A stretch of DNA of 64,000 nt from Clostridium sp. CAG:1000 (lineage in GTDB: Bacteria; Bacillota_I; Bacilli_A; RF39; UBA660). Positions 12,908 to 36,185 of the stretch are shown here, piece after piece (position 1 is the first letter of the stretch; each line of letters starts with the position of its first letter). The position numbers and the translations under genes are program-made. The stretch spans positions 26,519 to 90,518 of the forward strand of contig HG000336.1 in the NCBI GenBank assembly GCA_000436975.1, read 5' to 3'. The notes below the pieces were generated by a model that saw only the letters and a program-made list of their open reading frames with translations, ran no database searches and was not told the DNA's origin.

Positions 12908-13444
12908 TTACCCAATTCGAAAAGCTGGAGAAACACCGGATGAATAATCAGCATTAGCGTCACTCATGGCACCATTATCCCACGAATAGTAGAAAACGAA
13001 ATCAAAATCAGAACTAGCACTACGTAGCCACCATTCTGCAGCAGTTCCTGTACTATCCTTTTTTATTGCAGCAGCATAACTACTTGTAGTAACTCCTTTA
13101 CTATTATAATAATCTAACTGTCTTGTTTTATCTCTTGCCGCATCAGCATGATCCCCATCTTTCCATACTTCTGCAGTTGCTAACAAGTATAACTTATCTA
13201 TTGATATATGATTTTCTGAATCAAGCTCTCCATGCCCTGATATTGTTTTAGTAGTGATGATTATACTTTTTAATTCATTTGGTAGTGAATTATAAATATC
13301 ATTATTTATAAATGTTTTCATTTGACTTTTTGGCCATCCACCTTCATTAGTTACTGTTGGATTTATATTATGTGTAGTTATTATATCAGTAAACTCTACT
13401 ACAAATCCACATTTATTTTTATTTAAATTTATGTTATAATTCAT
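12908..13444 (-). pseudogene. 5'-truncated copy of a DUF6273-like secreted-domain family (WWLRSA...SPAFRIG C-terminus); N-terminal domain missing, abuts tRNA-Lys
   Basis: About 80% nt identity to 25626..26165 over the shared part. Homology to the full-length paralog stops ~30 nt before the tRNA. Confidence 0.55.
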
Positions 13445-13453
13445 ATGTTATGT

Positions 13454-13529
13454 GGACCACTAGCTCAGTTGGTAGAGCAACTGACTCTTAATCAGTGGGT
13501 CTAGGGTTCGAGTCCCTAGTGGTCCACCA
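13454..13529 (+). tRNA. tRNA-Lys (anticodon CUU), with encoded CCA
   Basis: Cloverleaf folded by hand. Acceptor GGACCAC/GTGGTCC, D-arm GCTC/GAGC, anticodon stem ACTGA/TCAGT with loop CTCTTAA, T-arm TAGGG-TTCGAGT-CCCTA, discriminator A, then CCA. Confidence 0.85.
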
Positions 13530-13540
13530 ATATGATAATG

Positions 13541-13564
13541 ACTCGCAATTGCGAGTTTTATTTT
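13541..13564 (+). terminator. intrinsic terminator after tRNA-Lys
   Basis: ACTCGC-AATT-GCGAGT followed by TTTTATTTT. Confidence 0.7.
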
Positions 13565-13583
13565 ATAAAAAGGAAGTGTATTT

Positions 13584-14192
13584 ATGGAAAAAAGAAATAT
13601 TATAATCACCTATATTTTATTACTATTTATAATAGCAATATTACTTATAATGGTATTTTATTACAAAGGAAAAGCAAGTAAAACATGTCCTAAATGTGAA
13701 GTTAATAATGCAACTACTATAAATAATAATCAAAATAACAATATAAAAAAAGAAGATAATAAAGAAGATATTATAAGTACAGGTAAAACTCTATGGAATA
13801 ATACTTATAATTTATATTGGAATTTTATGAAAAATATGAAAATTACTGAAATAAGCCTTGGTAAAAATAAAATAAATAATATGAAAGACTTTAATTTTTC
13901 AAGTCTTACAAGTAATGCTTTAAATGAAATGTATAGCTCCTTAGGAGTTAAAAATGATAATGGAACTTATTATATAGAATCAATAAGAACTAATGGAGAT
14001 ATTACTTATATGATAAGTGAAATAACATTAAAAGAAAATAAAAATAATAAAATAATATACAACGTTGAATCAAAATATTGCGCTAGTGGTGATAAAAGTA
14101 ACTGTAAAGATATTGCTAGTGTAAACAATGACTTTATATTAATAAAAGAAAACAATAACTATAAAGTTGATTCATTTATATTACCAGACTAA
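13584..14192 (+). CDS. hypothetical signal-anchored secreted protein (Asn-rich, Cys-containing)
   Basis: N-terminal TM ITYILLLFIIAILLIMVFYY. RBS AAAGGAAG upstream. Confidence 0.5.
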   Translation: MEKRNIIITYILLLFIIAILLIMVFYYKGKASKTCPKCEVNNATTINNNQNNNIKKEDNKEDIISTGKTLWNNTYNLYWNFMKNMKITEISLGKNKINNMKDFNFSSLTSNALNEMYSSLGVKNDNGTYYIESIRTNGDITYMISEITLKENKNNKIIYNVESKYCASGDKSNCKDIASVNNDFILIKENNNYKVDSFILPD

Positions 14193-14194
14193 AA

Positions 14195-14218
14195 AAGAAG
14201 CTTAAAAGCTTCTTTTTA
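14195..14218. terminator. bidirectional intrinsic terminator
   Basis: AAAAAA-GAAGCTT-AA-AAGCTTC-TTTTT perfect palindrome with A/T runs on both sides. Confidence 0.7.
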
Positions 14219-14326
14219 ACTGAATATCACAGAAAATGCTATTGTAAAGATATAACCAAACATTACAACAAGCATTACCCATGCAAATATTTTTTTCCAT
14301 ATGTTTTTAGTTTTCTTTTTTGCCAT
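14216..14326 (-). CDS. unannotated small ORF (36 aa) encoding a small membrane protein MAKKKTKNIWKKIFAWVMLVVMFGYIFTIAFSVIFS
   Basis: GAGGT RBS 6 nt upstream of the ATG. One clean TM helix. Ends inside the bidirectional terminator. Confidence 0.3.
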   Translation of the reverse strand: MAKKKTKNIWKKIFAWVMLVVMFGYIFTIAFSVIFS

Positions 14327-14391
14327 TTTTATACCTCAATAAAATTATAATATAAATAGAATAAAAAATAAAGTTTTTAATATAATTTAGT

Positions 14392-14979
14392 ATGAAAATT
14401 ATAAAAAAAAAATTGTTTAAATCATTATTAGTATCTTTTATTATAGGTATATTTATAGGAATAATTTGTTTTATATTATTATCATCAAAAGAAAAAATAT
14501 CGCTATCTAATAATCTCACTAACTATATTAATTTAATACATGATGGTAATTTTAAATACTTTCCATCACTTATTAAATCATTTATATCTAACTACAAATA
14601 TCTTGTATTAATATGGATATTTGGTATTATATTTTTTTGTTCTTTATTAATACCATTTATAATTATTTATAGGGGAATATTATTAGGTTTTACTATTTCT
14701 AGCATAATATATGTATTTCATATAAAAGGGCTTTTATATAGCTTAATAATGATGATTCCCAGCGCTATTATAAATGAATTTATTTTTATATTAATTAGTT
14801 ATTATAGTATAACATTTTCAACTAAATGCTTTAATGTAATAAAAAAAGATAAAACTATTAATTTAAGACAATTTATTAAAAATTATTTTTATATATTTTT
14901 GGTATTATCATCTTGCATATTACTTTCAAGCGTATATGAAATATATATAGGTTCAAATATTATTAAATTTGTAGTATAA
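14392..14979 (+). CDS. spoIIM: stage II sporulation protein M-like membrane protein
   Basis: ~195 aa, 5-6 TM, glycine-rich IIYRGILLGF segment typical of the SpoIIM family. Confidence 0.55.
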   Translation: MKIIKKKLFKSLLVSFIIGIFIGIICFILLSSKEKISLSNNLTNYINLIHDGNFKYFPSLIKSFISNYKYLVLIWIFGIIFFCSLLIPFIIIYRGILLGFTISSIIYVFHIKGLLYSLIMMIPSAIINEFIFILISYYSITFSTKCFNVIKKDKTINLRQFIKNYFYIFLVLSSCILLSSVYEIYIGSNIIKFVV

Positions 14980-15003
14980 TACTTACGAAAGGAAAGAAGT
15001 ATT

Positions 15004-16098
15004 ATGAGAGTAGTAGTAGGTATGAGTGGTGGAGTAGACTCAGCAGTATCAGCATATTTATTAAAAAAAGAAGGTTATGATGTTGTTGGTCTTTTTATGA
15101 AAAATTGGGACTCAAATATTAATAATGATAAAGAAGGTATAACAGATGGTGTGTGTCCTCAAGAACTTGATTTTAGAGATGCTAAAGCTGTATGTGATGA
15201 ATTATGTATACCATTATATAGAGTGGACTTTATAAAAGAATATTGGGATGATGTATTTAAATATTTTTTAAGTGAGCTTGAAAAAGGCAGAACGCCAAAC
15301 CCAGATATTATGTGTAATAAATATATAAAGTTCGATTTATTTAAAAAAGAAGCAAAGAAATTAGGTGCTGATAAAATAGCCACTGGTCATTATGCTCGTA
15401 TAGAAGGAAATAGACTTTTAAGAGGAGTAGATAATAATAAGGATCAAACATACTTCTTATCCCAAGTATCATCTGAGCAATTAAAAGATGTATTGTTTCC
15501 AGTAGGTGGACTTACTAAACCAGAAGTTAGAAAAATAGCAGAAGAAAATAATATACCAGTTGCAAAAAAGAAGGATTCTACTGGAATTTGTTTTATTGGT
15601 GAAAGACATTATCAAGAATTTATTGCCAATTATTTAAAAGGGAAAAAAGGGGATATTATTGATGTTGAAACAGGAAAGAAAGTTGGTACACACAAAGGTC
15701 TTATGAATTATACAATTGGTCAAAGAAGAAATGTAGGACTTTCAGGTGATGAAAAAAGACATTACGTTTGTGGTAAAGACTCTAAAAATAATATTCTTTA
15801 TATTGCATATGGAGATGATTCAAAATATTTATTATCTGATGAAGCTATTATAGAAGATATGAACTATATTTCTGATAAACACCCTGTATTTGCTACTGCT
15901 AAATTTAGATATAGAAGTGAAGATGTACCAGTAACAATAGAGTACTTAGAAAACAATCAAATAAGAGTTAAATATGATAATGTAAAAGCTGTTACTCCAG
16001 GACAAGCATGTGTTATTTATTTAGGTGAACAATGCTTAATGGGTGGAATTATAAAACAAGTATTTAAAGATGGAAAAGATATTTGGTATTTAAAATAG
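15004..16098 (+). CDS. mnmA: tRNA-specific 2-thiouridylase MnmA
   Basis: PP-loop VVVGMSGGVDSAVSA and full-length conservation. Confidence 0.95.
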   Translation: MRVVVGMSGGVDSAVSAYLLKKEGYDVVGLFMKNWDSNINNDKEGITDGVCPQELDFRDAKAVCDELCIPLYRVDFIKEYWDDVFKYFLSELEKGRTPNPDIMCNKYIKFDLFKKEAKKLGADKIATGHYARIEGNRLLRGVDNNKDQTYFLSQVSSEQLKDVLFPVGGLTKPEVRKIAEENNIPVAKKKDSTGICFIGERHYQEFIANYLKGKKGDIIDVETGKKVGTHKGLMNYTIGQRRNVGLSGDEKRHYVCGKDSKNNILYIAYGDDSKYLLSDEAIIEDMNYISDKHPVFATAKFRYRSEDVPVTIEYLENNQIRVKYDNVKAVTPGQACVIYLGEQCLMGGIIKQVFKDGKDIWYLK

Positions 16099-16122
16099 AA
16101 AATATTAATTTATTATAAGCAT

Positions 16123-16166
16123 AAGTTGTAACCCTATGATACTTTATCTAGACTACAACTTTTTTA
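16123..16166 (+). terminator. putative terminator after mnmA (long-loop hairpin + T-run)
   Basis: AAGTTGTA ... TACAACTT followed by TTTTTT. Confidence 0.4.
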
Positions 16167-16247
16167 ATTGTTTTTTAATGTTTATATATTGACAACCTAG
16201 TGTAAAGTGTTATACAATTAACATAGTGAGAATAGGAGAAATGATGT

Positions 16248-17015
16248 ATGAAAGAATTGAATGAACTATTAGGTCAAATTGGTATATCTAAAGTTAAACT
16301 AGCTAAATATTTAGGTGTATCTAGACAAATGATATATAATTATTTAGAACTTGATTCTTTGAGTAAATGGCCTCAAGAGAAAAGATTGTTATTATTAAAA
16401 CTACTTGATATAGAGAATGGTAGTGATAAAGAAATAAAAAAAATCAAAGTAAATAGTGAATACTTAGAAAGTGTAGAGGCAAGACTAAATCAAACAGTTA
16501 AAGATTTAAATAGCCAAAACTTTAATTATAAAAATCTAACTAAAGATGAACAAGAATTATTAAATGATATGATATTCTTAATAAGAGAAAAGTTTACTGA
16601 AGAAAAAACGAAAGATACATATTTTACATTCTTATATTTGTATCATATATTACAATCAATTGATAATGTTCCAGAGATTAAATATTTATTTGCATACTTA
16701 TCTAAAAAGACTGGATTTACTAATCCAATGGAATTTAAATTTGATGAGACTAGACAATTTATTTTAGAAAGTATTATATTTACTGCATTTAACTTATATA
16801 ATAATGGTGGTGCTTCTAAATCAAAATTAGTTGAATCTCATAATAGATTTGTACAAGAAATTGAAAATGACAAAGAAGAAAAATTGAGTCGTACTCAACA
16901 ATTAAATACAGTTAAATTTCAAGCATTAAAAGAATTAGGTTATACTGAAATAACTAGAGATAATGCTTCTGAAGTATTAAATAGAATGGCTGAAATTGAG
17001 TCTAGAAAAGTTTAA
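16248..17015 (+). CDS. XRE-family HTH transcriptional regulator with ~190 aa C-terminal domain
   Basis: N-terminal LGQIGISKVKLAKYLGVSRQMIYNYLE helix-turn-helix. Confidence 0.55.
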   Translation: MKELNELLGQIGISKVKLAKYLGVSRQMIYNYLELDSLSKWPQEKRLLLLKLLDIENGSDKEIKKIKVNSEYLESVEARLNQTVKDLNSQNFNYKNLTKDEQELLNDMIFLIREKFTEEKTKDTYFTFLYLYHILQSIDNVPEIKYLFAYLSKKTGFTNPMEFKFDETRQFILESIIFTAFNLYNNGGASKSKLVESHNRFVQEIENDKEEKLSRTQQLNTVKFQALKELGYTEITRDNASEVLNRMAEIESRKV

Positions 17016-17323
17016 TTTAAGTAAATTTTATAACTGCCAATAACATATATTATGTTAACTTGTGTATAAAATTAATATTAAAATATCAATAAATGGACAT
17101 TAATATATGACCGTTTTTGATTGCTTTTATTATATAAAATACTCTATCAATTATAAAACTAAATATAATTAAATAAATATGATTTTTTAAAAAATTGATT
17201 TTATAAAGAATACTTATTAACGTTATAACTGTATTTGTATACAACGTATAATATTTATGAATCATTCTCAGCACTTTTTTATTTATTAGATGAATAACTA
17301 TTCATCTCGATTTCTCATATTTA

Positions 17324-18061
17324 CTATATTATTTTCATAGATATTATAAATAACACTGTTGCTAAGAAAAAGCCTATAATCATATGTTTATTATCTCTAT
17401 AATTTTTAACTTCCCTTAAAATATCATTTAATGAAAGACTTATCATTAAACCAGCAACAAATATTAATACAAATGCAAGGAAAATATCATTGATAAAGTT
17501 CTTTAATAAAACATATGCAAGTAAAGCCCCTACTGGCTCAGATAATCCGGAAAGTAGGGTATATAAACATGTTTTTTTCTTCCCCACTCCACTATAATAA
17601 AGTGGGATAGAGATAGCTATTCCTTCTGGAATATTATGCAACATTATAGCAAGACATAATTTTAAACCAAGATGAATATTTGTATATGCTCCCATAAATA
17701 CAGCAATACCTTCAGGAAAGTTATGAAACATTAATGAAATCATACTAAGTACCCCTATTTTATATAAGGATGAATTATTATTAGTTTTAATCCTATTATT
17801 TATTTTTTCTATACTTAAATATCCTAATAAAAATGTAAGTATGATTAACAGTAATCCATACCCCACTCCATAATTATTAATTAATTTCATAGAAGAATCA
17901 GGTAACAAATCAAATACTGATATTAATGTCATTATAGCAAGTGAAAATGATAAGGAAATAACAATTAAACGATTTATCTTTTTATATTTAAAAAATATTA
18001 ATATACTCCCAATAACAGTAGAAACTCCAGCAATTAAAGATAATAATAATGGTATTTTCAT
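17324..18061 (-). CDS. zupT: ZIP-family zinc transporter
   Basis: HNFPEGIAV and HNIPEGIAIS metal-binding motifs with 8 TM. Confidence 0.8.
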   Translation of the reverse strand: MKIPLLLSLIAGVSTVIGSILIFFKYKKINRLIVISLSFSLAIMTLISVFDLLPDSSMKLINNYGVGYGLLLIILTFLLGYLSIEKINNRIKTNNNSSLYKIGVLSMISLMFHNFPEGIAVFMGAYTNIHLGLKLCLAIMLHNIPEGIAISIPLYYSGVGKKKTCLYTLLSGLSEPVGALLAYVLLKNFINDIFLAFVLIFVAGLMISLSLNDILREVKNYRDNKHMIIGFFLATVLFIISMKII

Positions 18062-18164
18062 ATTATATTTTATTCATGATAATTATAAGTAGACCAATAA
18101 TTACCAATTTAAAAATACATTATATTGCCATATTAATACATAATAATATTAGGTGGTGATTATA

Positions 18165-18281
18165 ATGGCAAATGCAAGAAATAATGCTAGAAGCAATGCT
18201 AGAAAAAATTCATGCAAAGCAAAAAGTAATGCTAGAAGCAATTCTAGATCAAGAAGTACTTCAAATTCAAGAAGTCGTTAA
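18165..18281 (+). CDS. unannotated small ORF: 38 aa highly basic Arg/Asn/Ser-rich peptide MANARNNARSNARKNSCKAKSNARSNSRSRSTSNSRSR
   Basis: Strong RBS AGGTGGTGA with 6 nt spacing to the ATG. Internal NAR(S/K)N repeats. Confidence 0.4.
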   Translation: MANARNNARSNARKNSCKAKSNARSNSRSRSTSNSRSR

Positions 18282-18301
18282 TATATAAAAGATATTCACA
18301 A

Positions 18302-19699
18302 ATGATTGAATATCTTTTTTTTATTTGTTATAATTTTAACGTAGGTAGTAATATGAAAAAAATAAAAATGGGTTTAATTTTTTTTATTATGATATTAGAT
18401 TTACTTTTATTAATTAGAGTAACTTATTTTAGGTTTTATGAAGTAAGTAGACCTATTGATATAAAGCCTTATATTAAAGATGATAAAATACATATAACAT
18501 TTTATACTAATGAATATCAATTAAACAACAAAACCTATTGTATTATAAAAAAAGATAATGAAGTACCTTCTATAAATGATAAAAATTGGAAGTTATCTAA
18601 TAATAGTAGTTGTGTATATAAAATTGGAAAAGGAACTTATAAAGCATATGTAAAAACTGCTGATAACAAGATAATTTTTGTTGAGGGCTCTGACATGCTT
18701 GGAAGTGTTACTGATATTAATACTAATAAAGAAAAAATATATTTGGCAATAAATGAACAATACTCACCTACTATTAATATTGATTATATAGGAAATGCTA
18801 AAACAGATATTACGTGGACAAGTGAAAATAATAATATTGCTACTGTTTCTCATGATGGTAAAATTAAAGGTATTTCTGAAGGAGAAACAAAAATTACTGC
18901 TACATCAATGGACAAGAGTATACCTATTAAGGTTATTGTAACAGACTTAATAAATACTAGACCAAATCATTTTAGCAATAAAAAACCTTACCTACCCTGT
19001 GGTATATATTCTAAAGAAGACAATGATTTATTAGATACAATATTAGAAGATAGAATTAACACAGTAGGTTATCAAACAAGAGCTGGAGCTGTAGAAGCAG
19101 CACGATTTATTACATTAGAACTCCCATATAAAATTAGATATTTTTCTGAAAATGGAAGAGGCTCTACTAATGGAGTTCAAGGCGAAGGAAGATATTATAA
19201 TAAAGGATTATACTTACATAGTAGTAGATTTAAAAATATCAAAAAGAAAGCACATGGTCCTAAAACATGGGGATGTAGTTTATATAGTAACCCATCACAT
19301 GGGAAAAGAGCAAATGGACTTGACTGTAGTGGCTTTATATCATGGGTATTATTAAATGGAGGATTCGATGTTGGAGACATAGGAGCTGGTCTTGCACCTC
19401 ATTTAGATTTAACTGATTATGAGCAAAGAATTAAATTTAATTCAAATGTTATAAAATCGGGAAAAGTTAAAGTTGGTGATTTATTAAGTTCCGGAGGAGT
19501 TAATGGTGGACATATAGCAATGATAGTTGGCGAAGATAATAATAAATATTATGTAGCCGAAAGTTTATGGACTCCACCCAATGTAAGTGTTGGAATATAT
19601 GAATATTCTAAGAAAACTATCTTTAATAGATATTACTATGTAATGCTTATGGATAGTTATTATAAAGAAGATGGAAAATTAACAAAATTATGGTATTAG
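18302..19699 (+). CDS. membrane-anchored Big_2 domain + NlpC/P60 (C40) putative peptidoglycan hydrolase
   Basis: Big_2 signature NATVSHDGKIKGISEGETKITATS. C40 catalytic residues DCSGFISWV (Cys) and GGHIAMIVG (His). Probable true start is the MKKIKMG at 18353. Confidence 0.65.
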   Translation: MIEYLFFICYNFNVGSNMKKIKMGLIFFIMILDLLLLIRVTYFRFYEVSRPIDIKPYIKDDKIHITFYTNEYQLNNKTYCIIKKDNEVPSINDKNWKLSNNSSCVYKIGKGTYKAYVKTADNKIIFVEGSDMLGSVTDINTNKEKIYLAINEQYSPTINIDYIGNAKTDITWTSENNNIATVSHDGKIKGISEGETKITATSMDKSIPIKVIVTDLINTRPNHFSNKKPYLPCGIYSKEDNDLLDTILEDRINTVGYQTRAGAVEAARFITLELPYKIRYFSENGRGSTNGVQGEGRYYNKGLYLHSSRFKNIKKKAHGPKTWGCSLYSNPSHGKRANGLDCSGFISWVLLNGGFDVGDIGAGLAPHLDLTDYEQRIKFNSNVIKSGKVKVGDLLSSGGVNGGHIAMIVGEDNNKYYVAESLWTPPNVSVGIYEYSKKTIFNRYYYVMLMDSYYKEDGKLTKLWY

Positions 19700-19711
19700 G
19701 AAGTGTGAATC

Positions 19712-20140
19712 ATGGATTATATTGAAGAATTTATTGAAGATAATATTAAAATAATAGTTATAACTTTTATAGTTTTATTTGTTGTATTAGCATTATATTT
19801 TATATTTAGAGAGAAAAAAACATATGAAATTGTAACTTGTCAAAGTGATGGGGGGTATTTTGAAAGAAGTTTTACAAATAAAAATACAAATGATTCGTGT
19901 GATTTAACAATAAATGCAGGAAGTAAACCTACATCACAATACATGCTTAAAATTAAAAGAGTTAAGATTAGTAGAAATAATAATGTAACAATACTAGTAG
20001 AAAATGAAAAAATATCTGATGAAACAAAAGAAACGTTTACTAACCCCTATTGTAAAATTAAATTTAATTTTCCTTGTAATGATGTATATGTAAAAGATAA
20101 TCACAATAGAATATATTCTAAAATAGATAATGTAAACTAA
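19712..20140 (+). CDS. hypothetical signal-anchored protein (142 aa)
   Basis: N-terminal TM IIVITFIVLFVVLALYFIF. Cys-containing exported domain. Confidence 0.45.
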   Translation: MDYIEEFIEDNIKIIVITFIVLFVVLALYFIFREKKTYEIVTCQSDGGYFERSFTNKNTNDSCDLTINAGSKPTSQYMLKIKRVKISRNNNVTILVENEKISDETKETFTNPYCKIKFNFPCNDVYVKDNHNRIYSKIDNVN

Positions 20141-20157
20141 GATACTTTAAATGCTAA

Positions 20158-21519: not shown

Positions 21520-21522
21520 ATT

Positions 21523-21552
21523 AAAAAAAGGAATAATTAAATTCCTTTTTAA
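21523..21552. terminator. bidirectional intrinsic terminator between convergent genes
   Basis: AAAAAGGAAT-AATTAA-ATTCCTTTTT. Confidence 0.7.
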
Positions 21553-21615
21553 AATGATTTAAGGTGTATTTTAGGACTATTTAATAATTTTATGATTATT
21601 TATATTAAAATACAC

Positions 21616-25625: not shown

Positions 25626-26395
25626 CTAACCAATTCGGAAAGCTGGAGAAACGCTGTATGTACCACGAGCATAAATATTGCCCCAACCACCATTAGTGCT
25701 GACAGCGTAGAAAATACTATAATAGTAAGAATTGGCCGAGCGGAGCCACCAAAAATTAGCAGTTCCTGCACTATTCTTTTTTATTGCAGCTTCATAACTA
25801 CTTGTAGTCACACCTTTACTATTATAATAGTCTAATTGTCTTGTAAGATCTTTTGCTAAATCATACTGATAAGACCAGTCTGAATATATTTCTTTTGGTG
25901 CTAATAAATATAGTTTATCTGATGATGTAAAGTTATTTGTATCTTCTTTGCCATGGCCTGACACTGTTTCAGTAGTGATGATTACGCTCTTTAATTCCTG
26001 TGGTAATGAATTATAAATATCATTATCTATAAATGTTTTCATTTGACTTTTTGGCCATCCATCTTTATTCCAACCCGAATTATATGTTGTTCCTTTATAT
26101 TCTCCGCTTGGATTCATATTATGTGTAGTTATTATATCAGTAAACTCTACTACAAATCCACATGCGCTTTGTGAAAATCCTTCTTGATTACATTCGTCTG
26201 GTGTACTCATATTTGATATTCTTACTTTATGTTTTCCATATGTACCTAAGTCTACTTCTTTTTCATCTCCAACATTGTATTTACTTGTTTGACCTGTTCT
26301 TACGGCATTTGCTATTGTATTCCATTTCTGTTTTTCCTGCTTTGACAGCTTTAGCTATTGTATCCCATGAATCTTCTGCAAAGGAAACAGTATTT
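25626..26395 (-). pseudogene. DUF6273-like family gene (WWLRSA...SPAFRIG), frameshifted in its N-terminal region
   Basis: The N-terminal domain (DSWDTIAKAVKAGKTE / WNTIANAVRTGQTSKYNVGDEKEV) is in two frames across a tandem ~48 bp duplication. There is no start codon in the upstream frame. The track ORF is 25626..26210. Confidence 0.5.
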
Positions 26396-26400
26396 ATTGG

Positions 26401-27135: not shown

Positions 27136-27158
27136 TTATTTTTCAATTATAATATTTA

Positions 27159-28106: not shown

Positions 28107-28113
28107 AACACAC

Positions 28114-28965
28114 CTATTTTATCTCAAAAATAGCACTAGAATATATAATATTGCTATTTTTTGAATCACTTTCTTCATTAAACTCTTTAATTATCCTATA
28201 TTTACCAGGATCTAATAAATTAATATATTCATCACTTAAAACGCATGAAACTGTTTGATTACTTTTAATAATATTTAAAATTAAATTGAATGATGGTTCT
28301 TCCTTAAATTTAATTTTATACCATTTTTCATTAACATATTTTTCAATAAAATATTCCTCTCCATACTCATAATTATTATTTGTATTATTTTTAATAGTTA
28401 AATTCATATGATTATTAGTTTCATTAATATTCATGATAATTGTTTCATTAGATATATTATAATTAGATATATCGCCTAGTGTATATTTTCCTGACATATA
28501 TTTTAGTATGTCTTTATATTCTGCTTCATTTAATTTAAAAATTTTATTATATGGTTGTTCAATATAAAACTTATCTTTTTTAGAATAAATATATATTTTA
28601 TATTCTTCTTTATCATTTAATATAAAATTCATTAATGTATAATCATCAACCCCTACTGGTGTATCATAATTACTTTCTTTAGTAGATTTTTTATTTTTAA
28701 TTATATTATATATATTATTAATATCATTTTTTGATTCAATAGTAAGACTATTGTTTTTATCCTTTAAAATAATTTTTTCTATTTTATTCTCGTTAGGTAA
28801 ATTTATTGTTTTATTGCAAGTAAACCAATATCCAAATATACTAAGAATAATAGCTATCGTTACAAATACAATTATAATTAATACTTCTTTTACATTAATT
28901 TTCATAATAATGCCTCCTAAATAATAACACACATCCATATCATTATTTTTCTTATATAGTATCAC
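28114..28965 (-). CDS. hypothetical signal-anchored protein
   Basis: TM EVLIIIVFVTIAIILSIFGYWF. N/K-rich. Confidence 0.4.
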   Translation of the reverse strand: MILYKKNNDMDVCYYLGGIIMKINVKEVLIIIVFVTIAIILSIFGYWFTCNKTINLPNENKIEKIILKDKNNSLTIESKNDINNIYNIIKNKKSTKESNYDTPVGVDDYTLMNFILNDKEEYKIYIYSKKDKFYIEQPYNKIFKLNEAEYKDILKYMSGKYTLGDISNYNISNETIIMNINETNNHMNLTIKNNTNNNYEYGEEYFIEKYVNEKWYKIKFKEEPSFNLILNIIKSNQTVSCVLSDEYINLLDPGKYRIIKEFNEESDSKNSNIIYSSAIFEIK

Positions 28966-29031
28966 ATTTTATTTTATTTGAATAGTTTTTTTACCTTCTT
29001 TTCAAAACTCATTTTAGCTTATTATTATAAT

Positions 29032-30201
29032 TTATAGCTTTTCTAACATACAAACGCATTCCACATGTTTTGTTCTTAGAAACATATCACAAATTGAAAT
29101 ATCTTTAAGAGCATAATTACTAAGTAAATCTATATCTCTTTTAAGTGTTTTATAATTACATGATATATATACTAATCTTTTTGAATTAGAGTTATTTATA
29201 TAATTAATTACTTCTTTAGATAGTCCATTTCTAGGCGGATCTACTATTATAGAATCAAACTTTCCTTTTATTCTTTTAGCATCACTACATATAAATTCAA
29301 TATTATTTATGTTATTTAATTTCTTATTTATATTAGCATTTTTTATACTTGATTCATTTATTTCAACTCCAACAACTTTTCTAAAAATATCACTCATCCA
29401 TATTCCAATAGTTCCTGTACCACAATATAAGTCAAGTAATGTATCACCACCCAAAATATACTCTTTTGCTTTATTATAAATAGAAGTCATACCTTCATTA
29501 TTTATCTGATAGAAACTCAATGGATAAATAGAAAACTTATATTTATTTATTTCATCAATCAAATATTCTTTTCCTTTAATATGTTTATCATTTAAATATA
29601 ATGAGTCAACATCAATATTTAATAATGGAGTATTTTCTATATCACTAATAATATTAACCATTACTTCATTATTAACGCTTCTAATCATTATTTCATAAAC
29701 ACCAGTTAAATCATATTCTTTTATATTATAAATTGTTTTATTTATTAATGAGTCTAACAAATAACATGTATTAAAAGAACATATATTATGAGTTTTAGAG
29801 TCATAAAAACCAATTTTATTATTCTTTATATGTAATACTACTTTATTTCTATAATTTAATGAATTATTAGTGTTTAAATAATTAACTTTTCTTTTAAATA
29901 ATCTTTCTATTTCATCTTTTTTTATTTTTCTTTCATTTTCATAACTTGTATGAAGAAAATTACATCCTCCACATTTATCATATATTGGGCATATTATTCT
30001 ATTTCTTTTAGGACTTTTGGTTATTATATTAACTATTTTTCCCTTAGCAAATCTTTTATTTAATTGTGTTATTTTAATCAAAACTTTTTCATTCTTAAGC
30101 GCACCAAAAATGAAGATAACAAAATTATCTATTCTAGCAATTCCATTACCTTCCATGTCTTCATTAATAATTGTTACTTCATATATATCATTAATTTTCA
30201 T
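29032..30201 (-). CDS. rlmD: 23S rRNA (uracil-C5)-methyltransferase RlmD/RumA family
   Basis: N-terminal TRAM domain, Fe-S cysteines CPIYDKCGGCNFLH, and SAM motif LLDLYCGTGTIG. Confidence 0.8.
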   Translation of the reverse strand: MKINDIYEVTIINEDMEGNGIARIDNFVIFIFGALKNEKVLIKITQLNKRFAKGKIVNIITKSPKRNRIICPIYDKCGGCNFLHTSYENERKIKKDEIERLFKRKVNYLNTNNSLNYRNKVVLHIKNNKIGFYDSKTHNICSFNTCYLLDSLINKTIYNIKEYDLTGVYEIMIRSVNNEVMVNIISDIENTPLLNIDVDSLYLNDKHIKGKEYLIDEINKYKFSIYPLSFYQINNEGMTSIYNKAKEYILGGDTLLDLYCGTGTIGIWMSDIFRKVVGVEINESSIKNANINKKLNNINNIEFICSDAKRIKGKFDSIIVDPPRNGLSKEVINYINNSNSKRLVYISCNYKTLKRDIDLLSNYALKDISICDMFLRTKHVECVCMLEKL

Positions 30202-31357
30202 TATTATTCATACTTTCAAATATAGAAGTCCCAAGTCCTAAAATATTTCTTATATCAAAATTATCTAATATAGTTGCGCCTATATCAGCAAATGTTTCTC
30301 TATCTTTTAGTCTCTTACCTTCTTTAAATTTCTTATTATATATTAAGATTGGTACATTTTCTCTTGTATGGTCTGTCCCTCTATATGTAGGATCATTACC
30401 ATGATCTGCTGTTATGATAAGCAAATCTTTTTCAGTTAGATTCTTTAAAAGAATTGGTAAATAATAATTAAACTCTTCCAATGCTTTTAAATATCCCTCT
30501 CTATTTCTTCTATGTCCATATAACATATCAAAGTCATTTAAATTAGCAAATATGAATCCTTTTTTATCACTTTTAGCAAAATCAATTAATTTCATCATGC
30601 CATCTATATTATCTTTAGTTCTTACTTTTATAGCAATACTTTTATTATTAAATATATCGGCTATTTTTCCAATCGCAATAGTTGGTACTCTATGTTTATC
30701 TAATAAATCAAGCACATTAAGTGGCGGATCTAAAGCATAATCATGCCTTCTTGAAGTTCTAGTAAAACTTCCTGGCTTACCAATATATGGTCTTGCAATT
30801 ATTCTTGCTATTTTATATTTTTCATCTTTAGTAAGTTCACGTACTTTAGTACATATATCATATAATTCTTCTACTGGTATTATATCTTCATGTGCTGCGA
30901 TTTGAAGCACTGAGTCTGCAGAAGTGTATATTATTAATGCACCTGTTTCCATCTGCATTTGTCCTAAATCTTCTATTATTTGAGTACCACTAGCAACTAT
31001 ATTACCAATAACATCCCTTCCTGTCACTTCTTTAATTTTACTTATTAATTCAAGAGGAAAACCATTTGGATATGTTTTATATGGTGTTTTTTGTACAACG
31101 CACATCATTTCATAATGACCATTTAATGTGTCCTTAGCAAGATTAATAGGTTTACCTTTCATATAATATCCTACTGTTTTAGAAACTTCTTTTCCAACTA
31201 AAGTAGTAAGCCCCATTCTTTCAAGAACATCTAAATTATAATGATCCCCAATTGTATGCAATAAAGTATTTGAACCAACGTCATTAAATTTATCAGCATC
31301 TTTTGCTTCTCCCACTCCTACACTATCCATTACTACTAAAAAAATTCTATCATACAT
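30191..31357 (-). CDS. deoB: phosphopentomutase
   Basis: MYDRIFLVVMDSVGVGEA metal-binding N-terminus. The start was chosen at internal Met36 of the track ORF so that it abuts the xer stop instead of overlapping it by 100 nt. Confidence 0.85.
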   Translation of the reverse strand: MYDRIFLVVMDSVGVGEAKDADKFNDVGSNTLLHTIGDHYNLDVLERMGLTTLVGKEVSKTVGYYMKGKPINLAKDTLNGHYEMMCVVQKTPYKTYPNGFPLELISKIKEVTGRDVIGNIVASGTQIIEDLGQMQMETGALIIYTSADSVLQIAAHEDIIPVEELYDICTKVRELTKDEKYKIARIIARPYIGKPGSFTRTSRRHDYALDPPLNVLDLLDKHRVPTIAIGKIADIFNNKSIAIKVRTKDNIDGMMKLIDFAKSDKKGFIFANLNDFDMLYGHRRNREGYLKALEEFNYYLPILLKNLTEKDLLIITADHGNDPTYRGTDHTRENVPILIYNKKFKEGKRLKDRETFADIGATILDNFDIRNILGLGTSIFESMNNNEN

Positions 31358-31358
31358 A

Positions 31359-32261
31359 TTAGTTACCTTCTTTCTTACTCCTATTAAAGTATTCATTATA
31401 ATTATCTTTGATAAAGTTATTTGCAAGATGAGTATATATTTCTGTTGTAACAACATTTTCATGTCCTAAAAGTTCTTGAACACTTCTAATATCCGCACCA
31501 CACTCAATCATATGAGTTGCAAAACTATGTCTAAGTACATGTGGAGTTATTTCCTTATTAATATTTTTTTCATGAGCAATCTTACCAATTATTTTATAAA
31601 GCCCTTGCCTAGTCATTTTAGTTCCATGATTATTTAAAAACAATGCATCTGTATTAGGCTTACCCTTTACAAATAAATCTTCTCTATAATTATTAATATA
31701 CATATCTAAATAATTAACAGCTATTTTGGACATAGGAACTATTCTTTCTTTACTACCTTTTCCATATACATGAACAACCATATTTAGTGTATCTACATTA
31801 TTTAGTTCTAAATTAATAAGTTCACTTGCTCTAAGTCCTGTTGAATACATAAGTTCTAATATAGCTTTATTTCTATGATCAAAAGGAGTATTAAGTTCAA
31901 TATCTAAAAGATTATCAACTTCTTCAATGGATAAATACTTAGGAAGCTTCTTTTTTCTTTGAAGACATTCTACATCCTCAGATATATTAATAAAACCTTT
32001 ATATACTGCTAGGTACTTATAAAAACTTTTTATACTTGCAATAATTCTATTAATAGAACTTTCATTATAACTAGGGAGTAAATGTAATATATAATTATCT
32101 ATATCTTTTTTCGTTATATTTAATATTTCTTTATCAGTATATGTTAAAAAATATTTAAGGTCCCTCATATAAGATTCAACTGTATTTTCAGAATAATTCT
32201 TATCTATTCTTAAATAATCACTAAAATCATCAACAAACTCTTTATTTTCAATATCTATCAT
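31359..32261 (-). CDS. tyrosine recombinase XerC/XerD family
   Basis: C-terminal catalytic box HVLRHSFATHMIECGADIRSVQELLGHENVVTTEIYTH. Confidence 0.8.
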   Translation of the reverse strand: MIDIENKEFVDDFSDYLRIDKNYSENTVESYMRDLKYFLTYTDKEILNITKKDIDNYILHLLPSYNESSINRIIASIKSFYKYLAVYKGFINISEDVECLQRKKKLPKYLSIEEVDNLLDIELNTPFDHRNKAILELMYSTGLRASELINLELNNVDTLNMVVHVYGKGSKERIVPMSKIAVNYLDMYINNYREDLFVKGKPNTDALFLNNHGTKMTRQGLYKIIGKIAHEKNINKEITPHVLRHSFATHMIECGADIRSVQELLGHENVVTTEIYTHLANNFIKDNYNEYFNRSKKEGN

Positions 32262-32321
32262 ACAATATTAATTATATAATAAAAAAAACTAATTGAATAG
32301 TTTTTTTACGCTATTTTTACA

Positions 32322-33326
32322 TTAATTTCTTTTACTATCTCTATAATTGAACAATATTCCACCTACAATACAAGGCAAATAATATGTAATTACTCTATAT
32401 AAAAGTACTCCAGGTATAACTATCGCTTCACATACAATTAAGCTAAAATAATGAATAAAAGAATACTCTGTGCTTATACTAGAACCTGGTATTGGTATAA
32501 AAGATGCAGAAATATAAACAAAACATGATAATATTATCGTATAAAACATATTAATATTAAAAGAAATATTTAATGCTTTTAAAGTAAAGAAAGGTATCAT
32601 AAAGAACACTGTCATATATATAAAATTAACACACACACATTTAATAATAAATTTCCTATCTTTAATAAGATTCTTAAATCCATTTTGATATTCAATGCAT
32701 TTTAAATTCCATTTATTTAAAGTTGCTTCTTTATCTTTAATTATATTAAGTTTATTAAGTAAATTAATCATATTTTTACCAATCTTAGATGCAAACTCAA
32801 TCTTAACGCATATAAGTATTGTTATAACAAAAGAAACAATTGTAATTAATGCCCCTATCAAAGTTAAAATATATAAAAAATTATTAGGTTTTAATTCAAA
32901 TATATATCCGAATATTAAAGATAAAATAATCATTATACTCATAGTTATTTGTAATATAATAAAATTCTCAACTATAACTAAAATACTCTTAGTCACAGGA
33001 ACTTTATTTTTACTTAATTCGTATACCTGAAGTGGTTGCCCTCCTAATGAAAAAGGTGTTATTCCATTAAAAAACTTAGTCATTATATTAAGTTCAATTA
33101 CTTTTTTAAATGGATACTTTTTACAAGATTTATCAATTAATATTTTTAAAAGATATGCTTCTATTATAAAATAAACAATATATGTTAAAATTGATAATAA
33201 AATTAACCATTTATTACTTGATGCTATTAAATCAATAGATTTAACAAAATTATCTTTTAATATATACCAAAATAAAAATATAGTTATTAATAATATAATA
33301 ATACTTCTAAATTTTATTTTTTTCAT
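32322..33326 (-). CDS. UPF0104/lysylphosphatidylglycerol-synthase-TM-region (flippase-like) membrane protein
   Basis: 8 TM, ~330 aa, characteristic N-terminal charged segment followed by a TM. Confidence 0.5.
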   Translation of the reverse strand: MKKIKFRSIIILLITIFLFWYILKDNFVKSIDLIASSNKWLILLSILTYIVYFIIEAYLLKILIDKSCKKYPFKKVIELNIMTKFFNGITPFSLGGQPLQVYELSKNKVPVTKSILVIVENFIILQITMSIMIILSLIFGYIFELKPNNFLYILTLIGALITIVSFVITILICVKIEFASKIGKNMINLLNKLNIIKDKEATLNKWNLKCIEYQNGFKNLIKDRKFIIKCVCVNFIYMTVFFMIPFFTLKALNISFNINMFYTIILSCFVYISASFIPIPGSSISTEYSFIHYFSLIVCEAIVIPGVLLYRVITYYLPCIVGGILFNYRDSKRN

Positions 33327-33436
33327 AACTTACCTCTTCACAATTATAACAAAAATATAATATGTATACAATATACTATTATAATATGACTAGTAAGTGA
33401 CTAATACTTTTATTTTATTGCTAAAACTGATAAAAT

Positions 33437-34651
33437 ATGTATGAGGTGACTACTATGGAACTATTACAAAATAAATTAAGGCCAAATACTCTAAAAGAGG
33501 TCCTTGGTCAAACTCATTTAATCGGTAAAGACAAAGTACTTTCAAATTTAATTAAAAACAAAGTTCTTTTCAATATAATTTTATATGGAAACAGTGGTTG
33601 CGGTAAAACAACTATAGCTCTTAGTTTAATAAATGATTTAAATATGAGATATAGAATGTTAAATGCAACTATCAATAGTAAAAAAGATTTTGAAGTTGTT
33701 ATAGAAGAAGCAAAAATGTATGGTTCTATGATCTTAATAGTTGATGAGATACATAGAATGAATAAAGATAAACAAGATATATTACTTTCATTTATAGAAA
33801 GTGGTCTTATTACATTAATAGGTCTTACTAACTCAAATCCATATCATTCTATTAATCAAGCAATAAGAAGCAGATGTCAATTACTAGAATTAAAGCCGCT
33901 AGAAGAAGATGATATTGTAAAAGGATTAAAAAGAGTAAAAAATGTACTTAATGATATTGAAATGGATCAAAAGACAATAAAATACATAGCAAAACTTTCT
34001 AATGGAGACATTAGATTTGCATATAACCTAGTAGAATTTTCATATTATGGTTTTAATCATAAAGTAACAATAGATAACATAAAAGAAGTTAATAATACTC
34101 CATCATTCTTTACTGATAAAAATGAAGATGGTCACTATGACATGCTCTCTGCATTTCAAAAAAGCATAAGAGGAAGTGATGTAGATGCATCATTACATTA
34201 TTTATCAAGACTAATAGTTAGTGGAGACTATGATTCAATTTATAGAAGAATGCTAGTAATTGCATATGAAGATATTGCTCTTGCAAACCCTTCTCTTCCT
34301 CCTAGAGTTTTAGCATCTATTGAAGCAAGTGAAAGAATTGGTTATCCGGAACTCATAAAGCCACTATCTGTTGCTGTAATAGAAATGGCCTTAAGTCCGA
34401 AAAGCAACTCAGCAGATATGGCAATTAATACCGCAATTAATGATGTACAAGCAGGAAATATTGGAAGAATCCCAGAAAACATAAGAACAACATCCCATAA
34501 TTATAAATATCCTCATAATTATAAAAATTATTATGTTGAGCAACAATATATGCCAGATAAACTAATCGGAAGAAAATATTATTTTCCAAAAAATAACAAG
34601 TATGAAACAGAAATGACTAATTTTAATAAAAAGATTAAGGAGGAAAAATGA
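33437..34651 (+). CDS. rarA: replication-associated recombination protein A (AAA+ ATPase)
   Basis: LRPNTLKEVLGQTHLIG...ILYGNSGCGKTTIA Walker A and a MgsA C-terminal domain. Confidence 0.85.
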   Translation: MYEVTTMELLQNKLRPNTLKEVLGQTHLIGKDKVLSNLIKNKVLFNIILYGNSGCGKTTIALSLINDLNMRYRMLNATINSKKDFEVVIEEAKMYGSMILIVDEIHRMNKDKQDILLSFIESGLITLIGLTNSNPYHSINQAIRSRCQLLELKPLEEDDIVKGLKRVKNVLNDIEMDQKTIKYIAKLSNGDIRFAYNLVEFSYYGFNHKVTIDNIKEVNNTPSFFTDKNEDGHYDMLSAFQKSIRGSDVDASLHYLSRLIVSGDYDSIYRRMLVIAYEDIALANPSLPPRVLASIEASERIGYPELIKPLSVAVIEMALSPKSNSADMAINTAINDVQAGNIGRIPENIRTTSHNYKYPHNYKNYYVEQQYMPDKLIGRKYYFPKNNKYETEMTNFNKKIKEEK

Positions 34652-35352
34652 ACTTCGTTATTGAATCCACACCAAATAAAATAGAAATTGATTATGATTT
34701 AATATCTCAAATTGAAAATAAATTAGAAGAAAATATTTCATTATCACAAGATGAAGCAAAATATTTTTTAGATTATATAGTATTCATAACAAGAACAAGA
34801 TTTACAAATGATTTAGATAACTATTCATTTGAATGGAAATGTGATACAGCAATCTCTATAATAGGTAATTATCTAAATAGTTTAAATGTAAATTATAACG
34901 TATGTGATACTCAAAAAGTAATAACAAATAACATTAAAGGCCATACATTTATGATAGTAAACTTAAATACTGAAAACGGTATTTTATCATATTTAATCGA
35001 TCCAACATATAGACAATTTTTTACCAAAGATACTTGTAATGAAAGTAATTATACATTAATAAATGGTATATATGTAACTACGCCTAACCCCGGTTATTTT
35101 ATAAAAGAAAAAGATAAAGAAAAAGTAAAAGAATTATTAATAAATGGATACTCTATTCTAACTAATGACATTGCAAGAATATATGGGGACTCTTTCTACA
35201 ACACAAAAGTTGGTGAAGATAATACTACTTATAAAAGCATACCAGGTAGTATATATATAAATTCATTCTTAAAAGGCAATTCACACTTATCAAAAACAAA
35301 TGATGAACTTCAAGATTTAAAAATAGAAAAACAAAATCAAAAAACATTATAA
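34648..35352 (+). CDS. hypothetical protein (234 aa), translationally coupled to rarA
   Basis: ATGA overlap with the rarA stop. No recognisable motif. Confidence 0.45.
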   Translation: MNFVIESTPNKIEIDYDLISQIENKLEENISLSQDEAKYFLDYIVFITRTRFTNDLDNYSFEWKCDTAISIIGNYLNSLNVNYNVCDTQKVITNNIKGHTFMIVNLNTENGILSYLIDPTYRQFFTKDTCNESNYTLINGIYVTTPNPGYFIKEKDKEKVKELLINGYSILTNDIARIYGDSFYNTKVGEDNTTYKSIPGSIYINSFLKGNSHLSKTNDELQDLKIEKQNQKTL

Positions 35353-35353
35353 A

Positions 35354-35382
35354 ACCTACTCAAACAAGTAGGTCTTTTTTTA
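35354..35382 (+). terminator. intrinsic terminator
   Basis: ACCTACT-CAAACA-AGTAGGT followed by CTTTTTTTATT. Confidence 0.7.
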
Positions 35383-36185
35383 TTAACCGATTCTAAATGC
35401 AGGAGAAACTCCTAATTTAAAATCAGGAGTACTACTTAACACTGCTCCAAAGTTACTAGCCACATAAAAGCTATAAGTTGCTGTTGCTGAACGAAGCCAA
35501 TAATGACGTTCGATTTCCGCACTATCGCTTTTTTTAGTTTTGATTCTGTTTGAGTAATACGAAAGAGGTTTGCTGAAGTTCTTCACTACACATATTATCG
35601 AGTATATCTTCTCTATGTCTAAGCCCTTTTCTTTTAGCAATATCATTTGCAGTTTCGCGCGTTTATAGTCCTTTATATCCACTATTATGAAATCTATCAA
35701 AGCTCTTAACTCCTGCATTTCTAGCAGCAATGTTTAATGAATAGTTTCCTTTTCTTGTTAAACCTCTTTGATATAATCTTTTTTCATCTTCAGAAAGACT
35801 ACTATACTCTTTTTCACTTAGTTCTTGTCTTCTTGTTTGTATCGTAAAATAAGTTTAAGCAAGTGCGATTACTTTCTTTACTTGAATTAGCATTTTGAAC
35901 AATCAAATAACATATATACCTAGATAATTTATAATCTTGTAAGTTAACATAAGCGTTATTATTTCTTTTTGACAAGTTGTTAGCCTCAACAAGTTGTGAA
36001 TTTATATTAATTTTAGAATTTTTGCATGTTTACTTTGCTCTACTTATAATTTTATTAAAGTTTCTCCATTCTTTGTACTCCAAAACTTTTTGCAATTCAC
36101 GAGCATACCAAAACTCGCACCCATTTTCATCGATATGTTTTATATCCTCAAATAATCTTTCAGTATATTCTTTTAATTCATTCAT
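35383..36185 (-). pseudogene. composite remnant: DinD-like (DNA-damage-inducible protein D family) pseudogene with a stop and >=2 frameshifts, fused at its 3' end to the last ~40 codons of a DUF6273-like gene (…HYWLRSA…GVSPAFRIG)
   Basis: DinD family from MNELKEYTERLFEDIKHIDENGCEFWYARELQKVLEYKEWRNFNKIISRAK*. Then, in other frames, IQTRRQELSEKEY...EDEKRLYQRGL...FDRFHNSGYKGL*...DIAKRKGL...SEELQQ. Then ANLFRITQTESKLKK. Confidence 0.5.

Follow-up and report, generated by a model that had tools for sequence, protein, structure and literature searches.

The window analysed here, that is the whole stretch of 64,000 nt (G+C content 25.5%), comes from the MetaHIT metagenome-assembled genome (MAG) Clostridium sp. 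CAG:1000. It contains exactly three stretches related to the domain DUF6273 (Pfam PF19789), all on the minus strand and referred to below as c1, c2 and c3; tblastn found no fourth copy in the window.

c1, 12908..13412, minus strand: the 3' 167 codons and stop of a type IV pilin-DUF6273 gene of locus A (see below)
c2, 25626..26400, minus strand: linker and DUF6273 module of a TasA-like gene; mechanical open reading frame (ORF) 25626..26210 (194 amino acids, aa)
c3, 35383..35530, minus strand: approximately the last 45 codons of a DUF6273 gene (ERHYWLRSA...GVSPAFRIG) and stop

The Pfam matches to PF19789 have E = 2.9e-18 for c1 (66.7 bits, model positions 19-170 of 172) and E = 5.9e-17 for c2 (62.5 bits). 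That of c3 (E = 0.0026, 18.1 bits) lies below the gathering threshold of 23.5 bits, and this piece is assigned to DUF6273 only via its C-terminal motif and a 77% nucleotide match over 48 nt. As DUF6273 matches, the three are far beyond chance. An earlier reading of the window from its letters alone (the sequence-only reading) was right to liken the domain to DUF6273, to place three minus-strand pieces here and to call none of them intact: no piece is able to make a full protein, and all three are non-functional. The promoter and conserved 5' module of the family are missing from each, and a class III signal peptide or pilin leader, a G|FTLxE motif and an alpha-1 helix were found in none of them. 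The same reading put the nucleotide identity between copies at about 80%. This is close for the interval it proposed as a test (77.7% for 13250-13440 against 25970-26165) but does not hold uniformly: c1 and c2 share 72% of nucleotides (62% of amino acids) over 537 nt, with 60-nt blocks spanning 45% to 90%, and c3 has 34% amino acid identity to c1 and c2. The proposed recent expansion followed by decay fares worse, as the pieces are not decayed duplicates of one another. One (c1) is the orthologue of an intact gene, one (c2) has another architecture, and one (c3) is an old relic; they are C-terminal modules of different modular genes, each with a separate history.

A search for intact copies elsewhere, which had been suggested as a check, found them with normal starts in sister strains. 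Homologues of a repaired c2 number 3408. The full-length ones are 371-404 aa long, combine PF07963 with PF19789 and start MKNKGFTLVELLAVIAILAILVIIALPN, as does the intact c1 orthologue (L044, L003/P0005; L numbers denote sequences from other assemblies). The N-terminus of this orthologue scores 29.4 bits against TIGR02532 (cut-off 16.3), ComG/PilA models match it, and PDB pilins match down to E = 4e-6; NCBIfam and PDB profile searches of the N-terminus returned type IV pilins only, the PDB matches being confined to the pilin helix. A second architecture joins a TasA/camelysin-like module to DUF6273 and is 482 aa long in L001/L002. In another species (L027), a 405-aa TasA-DUF6273 protein adjoins a pilin-DUF6273 gene, and more than 100 proteins of relatives (405-412 aa) combine PF12389 with PF19789, one of them carrying the NCBI name 'TasA family protein'. 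In this family, the C-terminal DUF6273 module follows an N-terminal polymerisation module of one of two kinds: a type IV pilin that has a class III signal peptide, or a TasA/camelysin-like module processed by SipW.

A scan of genome contigs did not return the window's own species (the best match was a Hadza 'uncultured Bacilli' MAG at 75% identity). Sister metagenome contigs are 97-100% identical to the window and therefore come from the same species. At least seven full-length pilin-DUF6273 genes lie at six loci on a single sister contig of 1.128 Mb, so that the description of a three-copy family is true of the window only. The loci named in this text are:

Locus A: RNaseHII-Tmk
Locus C: YbbR-L10
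Locus D: HU-CCA
Locus E: sortase-MucBP
Locus F: RecO-HrcA, two copies

The two tandem full-length genes of locus F (L064 10001..13191) have a 157-aa rve (integrase core) fragment between them, which hints at a transposase-associated duplication. Near locus D lies one weak N_methyl gene. A second modular pilin type, N_methyl plus DUF285 (392-443 aa), occurs at L061 3440..4618 and L063 3757..5088; it is found a few kb from locus E, beside sortase and MucBP genes.

Each full-length paralogue is preceded by the same block of about 90 nt, in which a palindrome (GTCAAT-N9-ATTGAC) overlaps a perfect promoter (TTGACT-17-TATAAT). The block was defined from an alignment of loci A, C and D (L044 4457..4543; L048 and L051 upstream of 10001), and its palindrome might serve all of them as an operator. 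A stretch of about 100 nt after the stop codon is likewise shared by loci A and C; with common sequence at both ends, the unit of about 1.35 kb therefore behaves as a dispersed repeat. Between strains, the pilin module of locus A is 97-100% identical and the flanks at least 97%; for the DUF6273 module, identity from one allele class to another is only 52-68%. The family is hypervariable and mosaic.

The gene order at locus A in the sister metagenome contigs is MutS-176aa-YhcG_A-RNaseHII(-)-[pilin-DUF6273]-Tmk-NT5C-ThyA-DHFR, and the pilin-DUF6273 gene is intact there (374-389 aa) in 11 of 11 sister assemblies. From CGFVVEF onward, c1 is identical (167/167 aa) to the intact 374-aa allele of L044. 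On the Tmk side, L044 5164..12735 and window 13412..5841 are 100.000% identical over 7572 nt; on the RNaseHII side the identity is 99.93% over 4493 nt. What the window lacks is L044 4494..5163, a segment with the -10 element, the start codon and the opening ~620 nt of the gene. In its place stands 13413..36479 of the window (23,067 nt), and about 50 nt of the locus-A promoter have been lost to this 23-kb block together with the start of the gene. The features at the two ends of the block are:

J1, 13412..13413: locus A homology ends and tRNA-Lys locus homology begins; microhomology 1 nt
tRNA-Lys(ctt), 13454..13529, plus strand: found by ARAGORN
J2, 36479..36480: the interior of YhcG_B meets the locus-A pilin promoter midway; microhomology 0-1 nt
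Pilin promoter remnant, 36480..36519, minus strand: palindrome GTCAAT-N9-ATTGAC and -35 element TTGACT, without the -10 element and gene start

J1 was placed by a three-way alignment of the window, L003 and L004 (L004 9829 corresponds to window 13412), and lies inside the SQSACGFVVEF block that is conserved in all paralogues. At J2, homology to L012 runs to 36479 and homology to L044 begins at 36480, the break falling between the -35 and -10 elements of the shared promoter. The mechanical ORF of c1, 12908..13444 (178 aa), extends to an ATG at 13444. The sequence-only reading had c1 end beside tRNA-Lys, and the tRNA does begin 9 nt beyond that ATG, but the ATG is accidental and the true c1 is 12908..13412.

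In all eight of the other strains listed (L004-L011), the 5' neighbour of tRNA-Lys is a polysaccharide deacetylase gene, not c1. The 23-kb block likewise sits at another locus in 8/8 of the other strains listed, with deacetylase-tRNA-Lys-202aa-SpoIIM-MnmA... on one side and ...MgsA-234aa-c3-dinD fragment-YhcG_B (intact)-ThiF-MetK on the other. The deacetylase side of the tRNA-Lys locus varies between strains: L006 has a mobile element (serine recombinase, Mob_Pre, Abi_2, helix-turn-helix; 1765..8171) inserted 5' of the deacetylase gene. Integration at tRNA-Lys was considered as the origin of the c1 junction and rejected: c1 is on the 5' side of the tRNA, the junction is a rearrangement, and other strains have the deacetylase gene there. 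A type II-A CRISPR-Cas system (Cas9, Cas1, Cas2, Csn2) lies between MnmA and a 255-aa gene in L011 (12730..18577), with nothing at the corresponding window positions 16115..16165. The truncation of c1 may be a private rearrangement or a misjoin in the MAG.

The second piece, c2, belongs to a locus with genes for a SipW-type signal peptidase and TasA-like proteins:

DUF5305 gene, 21616..22926
SipW-type signal peptidase, 22913..24106, minus strand: Pfam S24/S26; NCBIfam signal peptidase I 91.3 bits (cut-off 51.85); match to the SipW model below cut-off
Further TasA-like genes, 24155..25395
Terminator-like hairpin after c2, 25553..25581, minus strand
Variable region of c2, 25629..25751, minus strand: consensus GC-rich scaffold TGGTGGCTCCGCTCGGCC...GGCGTTTCTCC
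Conversion patch, 26188..26325, minus strand: about 138 nt, private to the window assembly; encodes WNTIANAVRTGQTSKYNVGDE..., a pilin-type variant
In-frame TAA, 26401..26403, minus strand: parts the TasA-like module from the DUF6273 module; GAA in L001/L002
TasA/camelysin-like N-terminal module, 26404..27135, minus strand: 231 aa from ATG 27096

Homology of c2 reaches 26400 in a second frame upstream of the mechanical ORF. Because c2 follows in frame after a single TAA, 26404..27135 is its own N-terminal module; the match of window 26401..27135 to PF12389 is weak (E = 0.0066, 16.7 bits; cut-off 22.5 bits). The TAA is also present in L012 and L014-L019; it separates the two modules in at least eight assemblies. 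In L014-L019, the TasA-like gene (231 aa) ends ...NTPVVSD-TAA, after which the sequence continues in the same frame with PINTVSFAEDSWDTIAKAVKAGKTEKYKVGD... and 243 codons without a stop; the c2 cassette of L012 contains an additional nonsense codon. With GAA in place of TAA, L001/L002 encode the intact 482-aa fusion. These two assemblies carry two tandem DUF6273 cassettes after the TasA-like module (L001 4742..6922), the first fused and ending ...SPAFRLEGPVE, the second in frame behind a TAA; the cassette and its linker (P-x-E-P-x-NTVSF) were duplicated as a unit. The whole SipW / TasA-like / DUF5305 / Big_2 fibre locus (18119..28803) is an accessory island, and L010 joins 18118 directly to 28804.

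The sequence-only reading had c2 frameshifted within a SipW locus. The frameshift and the locus both stand, and the homopolymer sequencing error that it raised as a possible cause does not. The frame is instead lost through a 43-nt insertion (26283..26325, +1 frameshift), which makes up the patch together with about 15 clustered substitutions and repeats the W-x-T-I-A segment in a second, pilin-type variant. An alignment of the window c2 with L014 shows no difference except in the patch. Among sampled sequences, the most donor-like, in L003 and L061, are 91.5% identical to the patch. We read it as a gene-conversion tract from an unsampled paralogue, with its 5' end resolved out of register.

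Promoter-like sites lie at ~27118..27173, ahead of the TasA-like gene. With these and with the hairpin after it, c2 is predicted to be the transcribed, untranslated tail of the TasA-like gene. Its cassette haplotypes have dN/dS of about 0.6-1.3 (from only 1-8 substitutions), and in its 90% cluster six of the 14 distinct products are shortened. Both observations suit a cassette that has decayed neutrally since a nonsense mutation of fairly recent date, not one that is maintained. Could c2 nonetheless be a functional stand-alone gene? An ORF of 200 aa from an internal ATG (MVRISNMSTP...) in sister strains might encode an intracellular, leaderless DUF6273 protein; gene callers predict it in at least 31 contigs, and it would sit on the TasA-like transcript, upstream of the terminator. 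That start, however, lies inside the N-terminal region of the domain and is AAA in the window. The product has no signal peptide or pilin leader, there is no promoter-like site directly upstream, truncated variants are frequent and dN/dS is about 1. We give this possibility very little weight.

An error of assembly is a more serious concern for both c1 and c2. In that case the pilin gene of locus A would be whole in the real genome, c2 would not have the 43-nt insertion, and J1, J2 and the patch would be chimeric joins that arose when a multi-copy family was assembled in a MAG. The 194-aa ORF of c2 is identical to NCBI CCX35806.1 of the MetaHIT MAG itself, and J1, J2 and the insertion are seen in no other assembly. 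L044, a MetaHIT single-sample assembly, has the near-identical flanks described above, yet its pilin gene is intact. The locus-A sides of J1 and J2 are inside blocks that are identical among paralogues (promoter; SQSACGFVVEF), and that three private lesions, all of them non-homologous joins, should fall in one repeat family of one MAG argues caution. Against this, the two sides of each join overlap by only 0-1 nt and no Ns are present, whereas a path error in a de Bruijn graph requires a shared stretch of k-1 bases or more. At its YhcG_B end the block breaks off 9-12 nt short of the long exact YhcG_A/B repeat rather than inside it, and the tRNA-Lys end has no repeat in the window. We consider an artefact possible, though on balance somewhat doubtful.

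The third piece, c3, adjoins two further damaged genes:

dinD-like pseudogene, 35540..36185, minus strand: abuts c3; split between three reading frames; matched in fragments by NCBIfam NF008573 (E = 6.7e-17 and 5.7e-8)
YhcG_B 3' fragment, 36238..36479, minus strand: last 77 codons; the whole gene (296 aa) is present in sister strains

Throughout L012-L019, identity over the c3-dinD-YhcG_B region is 99.5-99.97%, and c3 is therefore an old relic fixed in the species. The sequence-only reading described about 40 codons fused to a DinD-like pseudogene. A relic of about 45 codons is there; the rest of its ORF (35383..35730, 115 aa) is a 5' half that overlaps the end of the pseudogene in another frame. 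YhcG_A (DUF1016 / PDDEXK nuclease, 37829..38470) is a 213-aa ORF in the window and L044 and has 296 aa in L003, L041 and others; YhcG_B and YhcG_A are paralogues with 88-89% nucleotide identity. The histories of the three remnants thus differ: the TAA before c2 is species-wide and c3 is ancient, while the c1 truncation and the c2 patch are private to one MAG and unverified. None of the three would be expressed as a functional protein, and all are probably decaying neutrally.

The suggestion that the copies serve as recombination substrates is partly borne out, in that the family has mosaic alleles and c2 carries the patch; a maintained role as donors has no support. Such a role would make them silent cassettes like those of Neisseria pilE/pilS, promoterless 5'-truncated copies kept as donors to the expressed pilin-DUF6273 genes. 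The absence of promoter and 5' module from all three copies is as this model would have it, and so are the 243 codons that c2 keeps open in several strains, the conversion tract and mosaic alleles, and a hypervariable C-terminal module behind a pilin module that is 97-100% conserved. The single observed tract, however, enters c2 and none is seen leaving it. Purifying selection is lacking in c2, many of whose variants are truncated; the c1 truncation is private to one assembly; c3 has 45 codons and is strongly diverged; and the full-length, promoter-bearing paralogues of the sister genomes, at least seven of them, could donate themselves. Guanine-quadruplex (G4), recombination-initiating or cassette-array features were not seen. 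We therefore think silent cassettes very unlikely.

The sequence-only reading took the function of DUF6273 to be unknown, a view that no longer holds. In gut phages, diversity-generating retroelements (DGRs) target this C-type-lectin-like binding domain, whose variable region lies at the C-terminus (PMC10743442; PMC11792537; bioRxiv 10.1101/2024.10.15.618418). An AlphaFold2 (AF2) model of the domain from a deeper alignment has pLDDT 74.9 and pTM 0.81. By Foldseek its best PDB match (E = 8e-5) is 9qa6, the IgA peptidase of Thomasclavelia ramosa; behind it come many weak matches to C-type lectins and Lcl (E = 0.2-2). In BFVD, it matches 27 phage DUF6273, tail-fibre or receptor-binding proteins at E <= 1e-3, with TMq up to 0.68. 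The structural support for a C-type lectin itself is weak, and that assignment comes mainly from the literature.

The last 41 codons of the family share a GC-rich scaffold (TGG TGG CTC CGC TCG GCC ... GGC GTT TCT CC) across alleles and paralogues, and the variable regions that share it differ almost solely in the first and second letters of NNT/NNC codons scattered through it. By codon position (1/2/3), the strongly variable sites divide 15/17/2, whereas upstream all three positions vary to about the same extent. Among c2, L038, L042, L048 and L003, the upstream 300 nt are 60-92% identical and the scaffold 94-99%, against 28-46% at 39 predicted template-adenine sites. Across 64 distinct variable regions with 20 variable positions, 98.3% of 1280 residues are derivable from AAY codons, and K+E+Q+M+W make up 1.7% of residues there versus 19.9% in the preceding 120 residues. 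The variable region of c2 is the only exact scaffold match in the window (scaffold identity 0.94-0.98, versus 0.28-0.46 at predicted template-adenine sites). Its GC-rich 5' scaffold TGGCTCCGCTCGGCCA (25733..25748) can form a small hairpin and stands out at 25% G+C.

The pattern is found in c2 and in the majority of paralogues. In c1 (the L044 allele), at locus D and in c3, the scaffold has diverged in the ordinary way. The equivalent in c1 (12911..13033, minus strand) is its last 41 codons, WWLRSASS...GVSPAFRIG, whose scaffold identity to other variable regions (0.75-0.80) is about that of the upstream sequence, with synonymous changes that include CTA CGT AGT GCT. The corresponding part of c3 is strongly diverged and not rich in Asn/AAY. 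In phage Roos, the template repeat places the variable region in the last ~45 codons (WWLRSPYYGY...GVVPGF), which is exactly the position of WWLRSA...GVSPAFRIG in the pilin-DUF6273 family. From this codon-level pattern, it is very likely that past adenine mutagenesis of DGR type shaped the last 41 codons of the family.

Taking these lines together, we favour the reading that the window holds three remnants, with different histories, of a large, recombining, hypervariable family of lectin-headed pilus and fibre subunits that bears a DGR-type fingerprint; we think this likely to be correct. The variable lectin-like binding head would be displayed on pili or fibres for adhesion, and we infer that its present diversity moves mainly by recombination between alleles and paralogues.

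Several observations weigh against this reading. The source is a MetaHIT-era MAG, in which the c1 truncation and the c2 frameshift could be artefacts; both ORFs are absent from the gene-position index and from exact-product look-ups, leaving the private lesions without independent support. The adhesive, lectin-like function is inferred by homology only. Genes for a prepilin peptidase, an assembly ATPase and a platform protein were found neither in the window nor in the fetched flanks, pilus assembly genes not having been otherwise examined. On the side of the retroelement, no template repeat was found in the window, in 52 fetched loci or in pattern scans of metagenome and viral contigs, and phmmer with the Roos reverse transcriptase (RT), run on all window ORFs of 100 aa or more and on those of 62 loci, returned only the self-match. 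Taken together, the searches for either element covered the window, 10 kb on each side of loci A-F, 64 fetched loci and two contig collections, rather than whole genomes of the species. After the variable region at loci A and C, there is no stable GC-rich hairpin. At 90% clustering, the density of variable sites in the variable region is no higher than in the rest of the gene in nine of 10 clusters, the exception being the small c2-type cluster, and a single full-length protein is found unchanged, even in its variable region, in up to 146 contigs.

Other searches for the retroelement agree. An all-AAY template pattern had no match in the fetched loci or metagenome contigs, a regular-expression search for RT motifs had none, and no RVT family appears in the Pfam annotation of the window ORFs scanned or in the gene tables within 10 kb on either side of loci A-F. 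The scaffold pattern gave two matches in viral contigs, both high-GC chance matches, and in metagenome contigs six variable regions, all in full-length pilin genes and none a template repeat. Second copies near the variable region in GTDB loci are neighbouring paralogues whose mismatches are not adenine-specific. The variable region ends in a conserved GGCGTTTCTCCAGCTTTCCGAATTGG, with terminator-like hairpins only after c2 and locus D; Roos has a GC hairpin.

DGRs that act remotely on several targets are known in general. An RT and template repeat elsewhere in the genome might currently diversify the variable regions, including that of c2, with c3 as the template repeat or its remnant. The strong adenine-specific fingerprint speaks for this, as does a scaffold homogenised across paralogues that otherwise differ by 8-40%; DUF6273 variable regions are moreover proven DGR targets in gut phages (PMC10743442; PMC11792537; bioRxiv 10.1101/2024.10.15.618418). 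The negative searches for RT and template repeat tell against it, together with the missing canonical downstream hairpin at loci A and C, the composition and divergence of c3, and variable regions that are static within lineages across many samples. We consider this account unlikely, and equally doubt that a DGR is currently active in the window genome. A bolder version, speculative and quite improbable, is that one trans-acting DGR, perhaps borne by a phage or by a subset of strains, diversifies the lectin heads of one TasA-fibre gene and seven or more dispersed type IV pilin genes in a gut Bacilli genome of ~1.1 Mb. Untranslated copies such as c2, which retain a variable-region scaffold of homing type, could then form a reservoir and pass their diversified variable regions on to expressed paralogues through gene conversion. 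If true, retroelement mutagenesis would be combined with cassette-style recombination.

Of the favoured reading's two parts, the broken copies are largely a case of ordinary gene decay. At least one may be a MAG artefact, and caution is therefore needed with pseudogene calls in multi-copy families of metagenome bins. The family is of more interest, as a reduced genome of uncultured human-gut Bacilli keeps at least seven lectin-headed pilins and a TasA-fibre version with a DGR-type fingerprint. DGR diversification is already known for phage tail fibres and Bacteroides type V pili. Should a cognate retroelement exist, it would bring the type IV pili and TasA-like fibres of gut bacteria related to Firmicutes into the range of DGR-diversified adhesins and offer a tractable set of remote, multi-copy targets. 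In the literature searched, DGRs are not linked to type IV pilins, the only link found being a table entry, 'GspG-type pilin', among rare variable-region domains.

Among known systems, Streptococcus sanguinis has type IV pilins of similar modular build, with a vWA module in PilB and a lectin module in PilC (PMC9934059): a class III signal peptide and pilin module are followed by a bulky C-terminal binding module, in monoderm Firmicutes, with a presumed role in adhesion at the tip. The module here is DUF6273 rather than vWA or ConA-like, and the window copies lack the pilin module altogether. The genes also lie outside a pil operon and stand singly among housekeeping genes, in at least seven copies, each with the conserved promoter.

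The DUF6273 targets of phage DGRs (tentaclins, PMC10743442; Faecalibacterium phages Roos, Pioen and Lelie, PMC11792537; Toutatisvirus, bioRxiv 10.1101/2024.10.15.618418) share the Pfam domain and its predicted fold, and their variable stretch falls in the same C-terminal ~41-45 codons from WWLRS with the same adenine/AAY codon type. They adjoin an RT, Avd and a template repeat, whereas here the domain sits in chromosomal pilin and TasA fusions with no RT or template repeat within reach, and the two groups are only about 27-29% identical in sequence. In Bacteroides, DGRs diversify type V pilus adhesins (bioRxiv 10.1101/2024.11.15.621889), again in a gut commensal with a variable module of C-type-lectin type on a pilus. 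Those pili are of type V rather than type IV or TasA-like, belong to another phylum and follow another assembly route, and active DGR cassettes are present there but were not found here.

Neisseria pilE/pilS offers promoterless, 5'-truncated copies beside expressed genes, a conserved N-terminus with a variable C-terminus, and gene conversion; here there are many full-length paralogues, and the truncations, with no support for a donor role, are of heterogeneous and partly private origin. The only solved DUF6273 structure, that of the T. ramosa IgA peptidase (PDB 9qa6; PMC12402451), also comes from a surface protein of gut Firmicutes and is the best Foldseek match in the PDB. In that sortase-anchored protein, for which no variation of a variable region is reported, DUF6273 is N-terminal to an M64 peptidase, and the sequence identity is 15%. 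Last, the Bacillus subtilis TasA/SipW system (PF12389) resembles the c2 locus in having a SipW-type signal peptidase gene beside several small secreted TasA-like genes. The locus here differs in its weak PF12389 match, in being an accessory island absent from L010, and in a subunit that has, or had, an extra C-terminal DUF6273 module.

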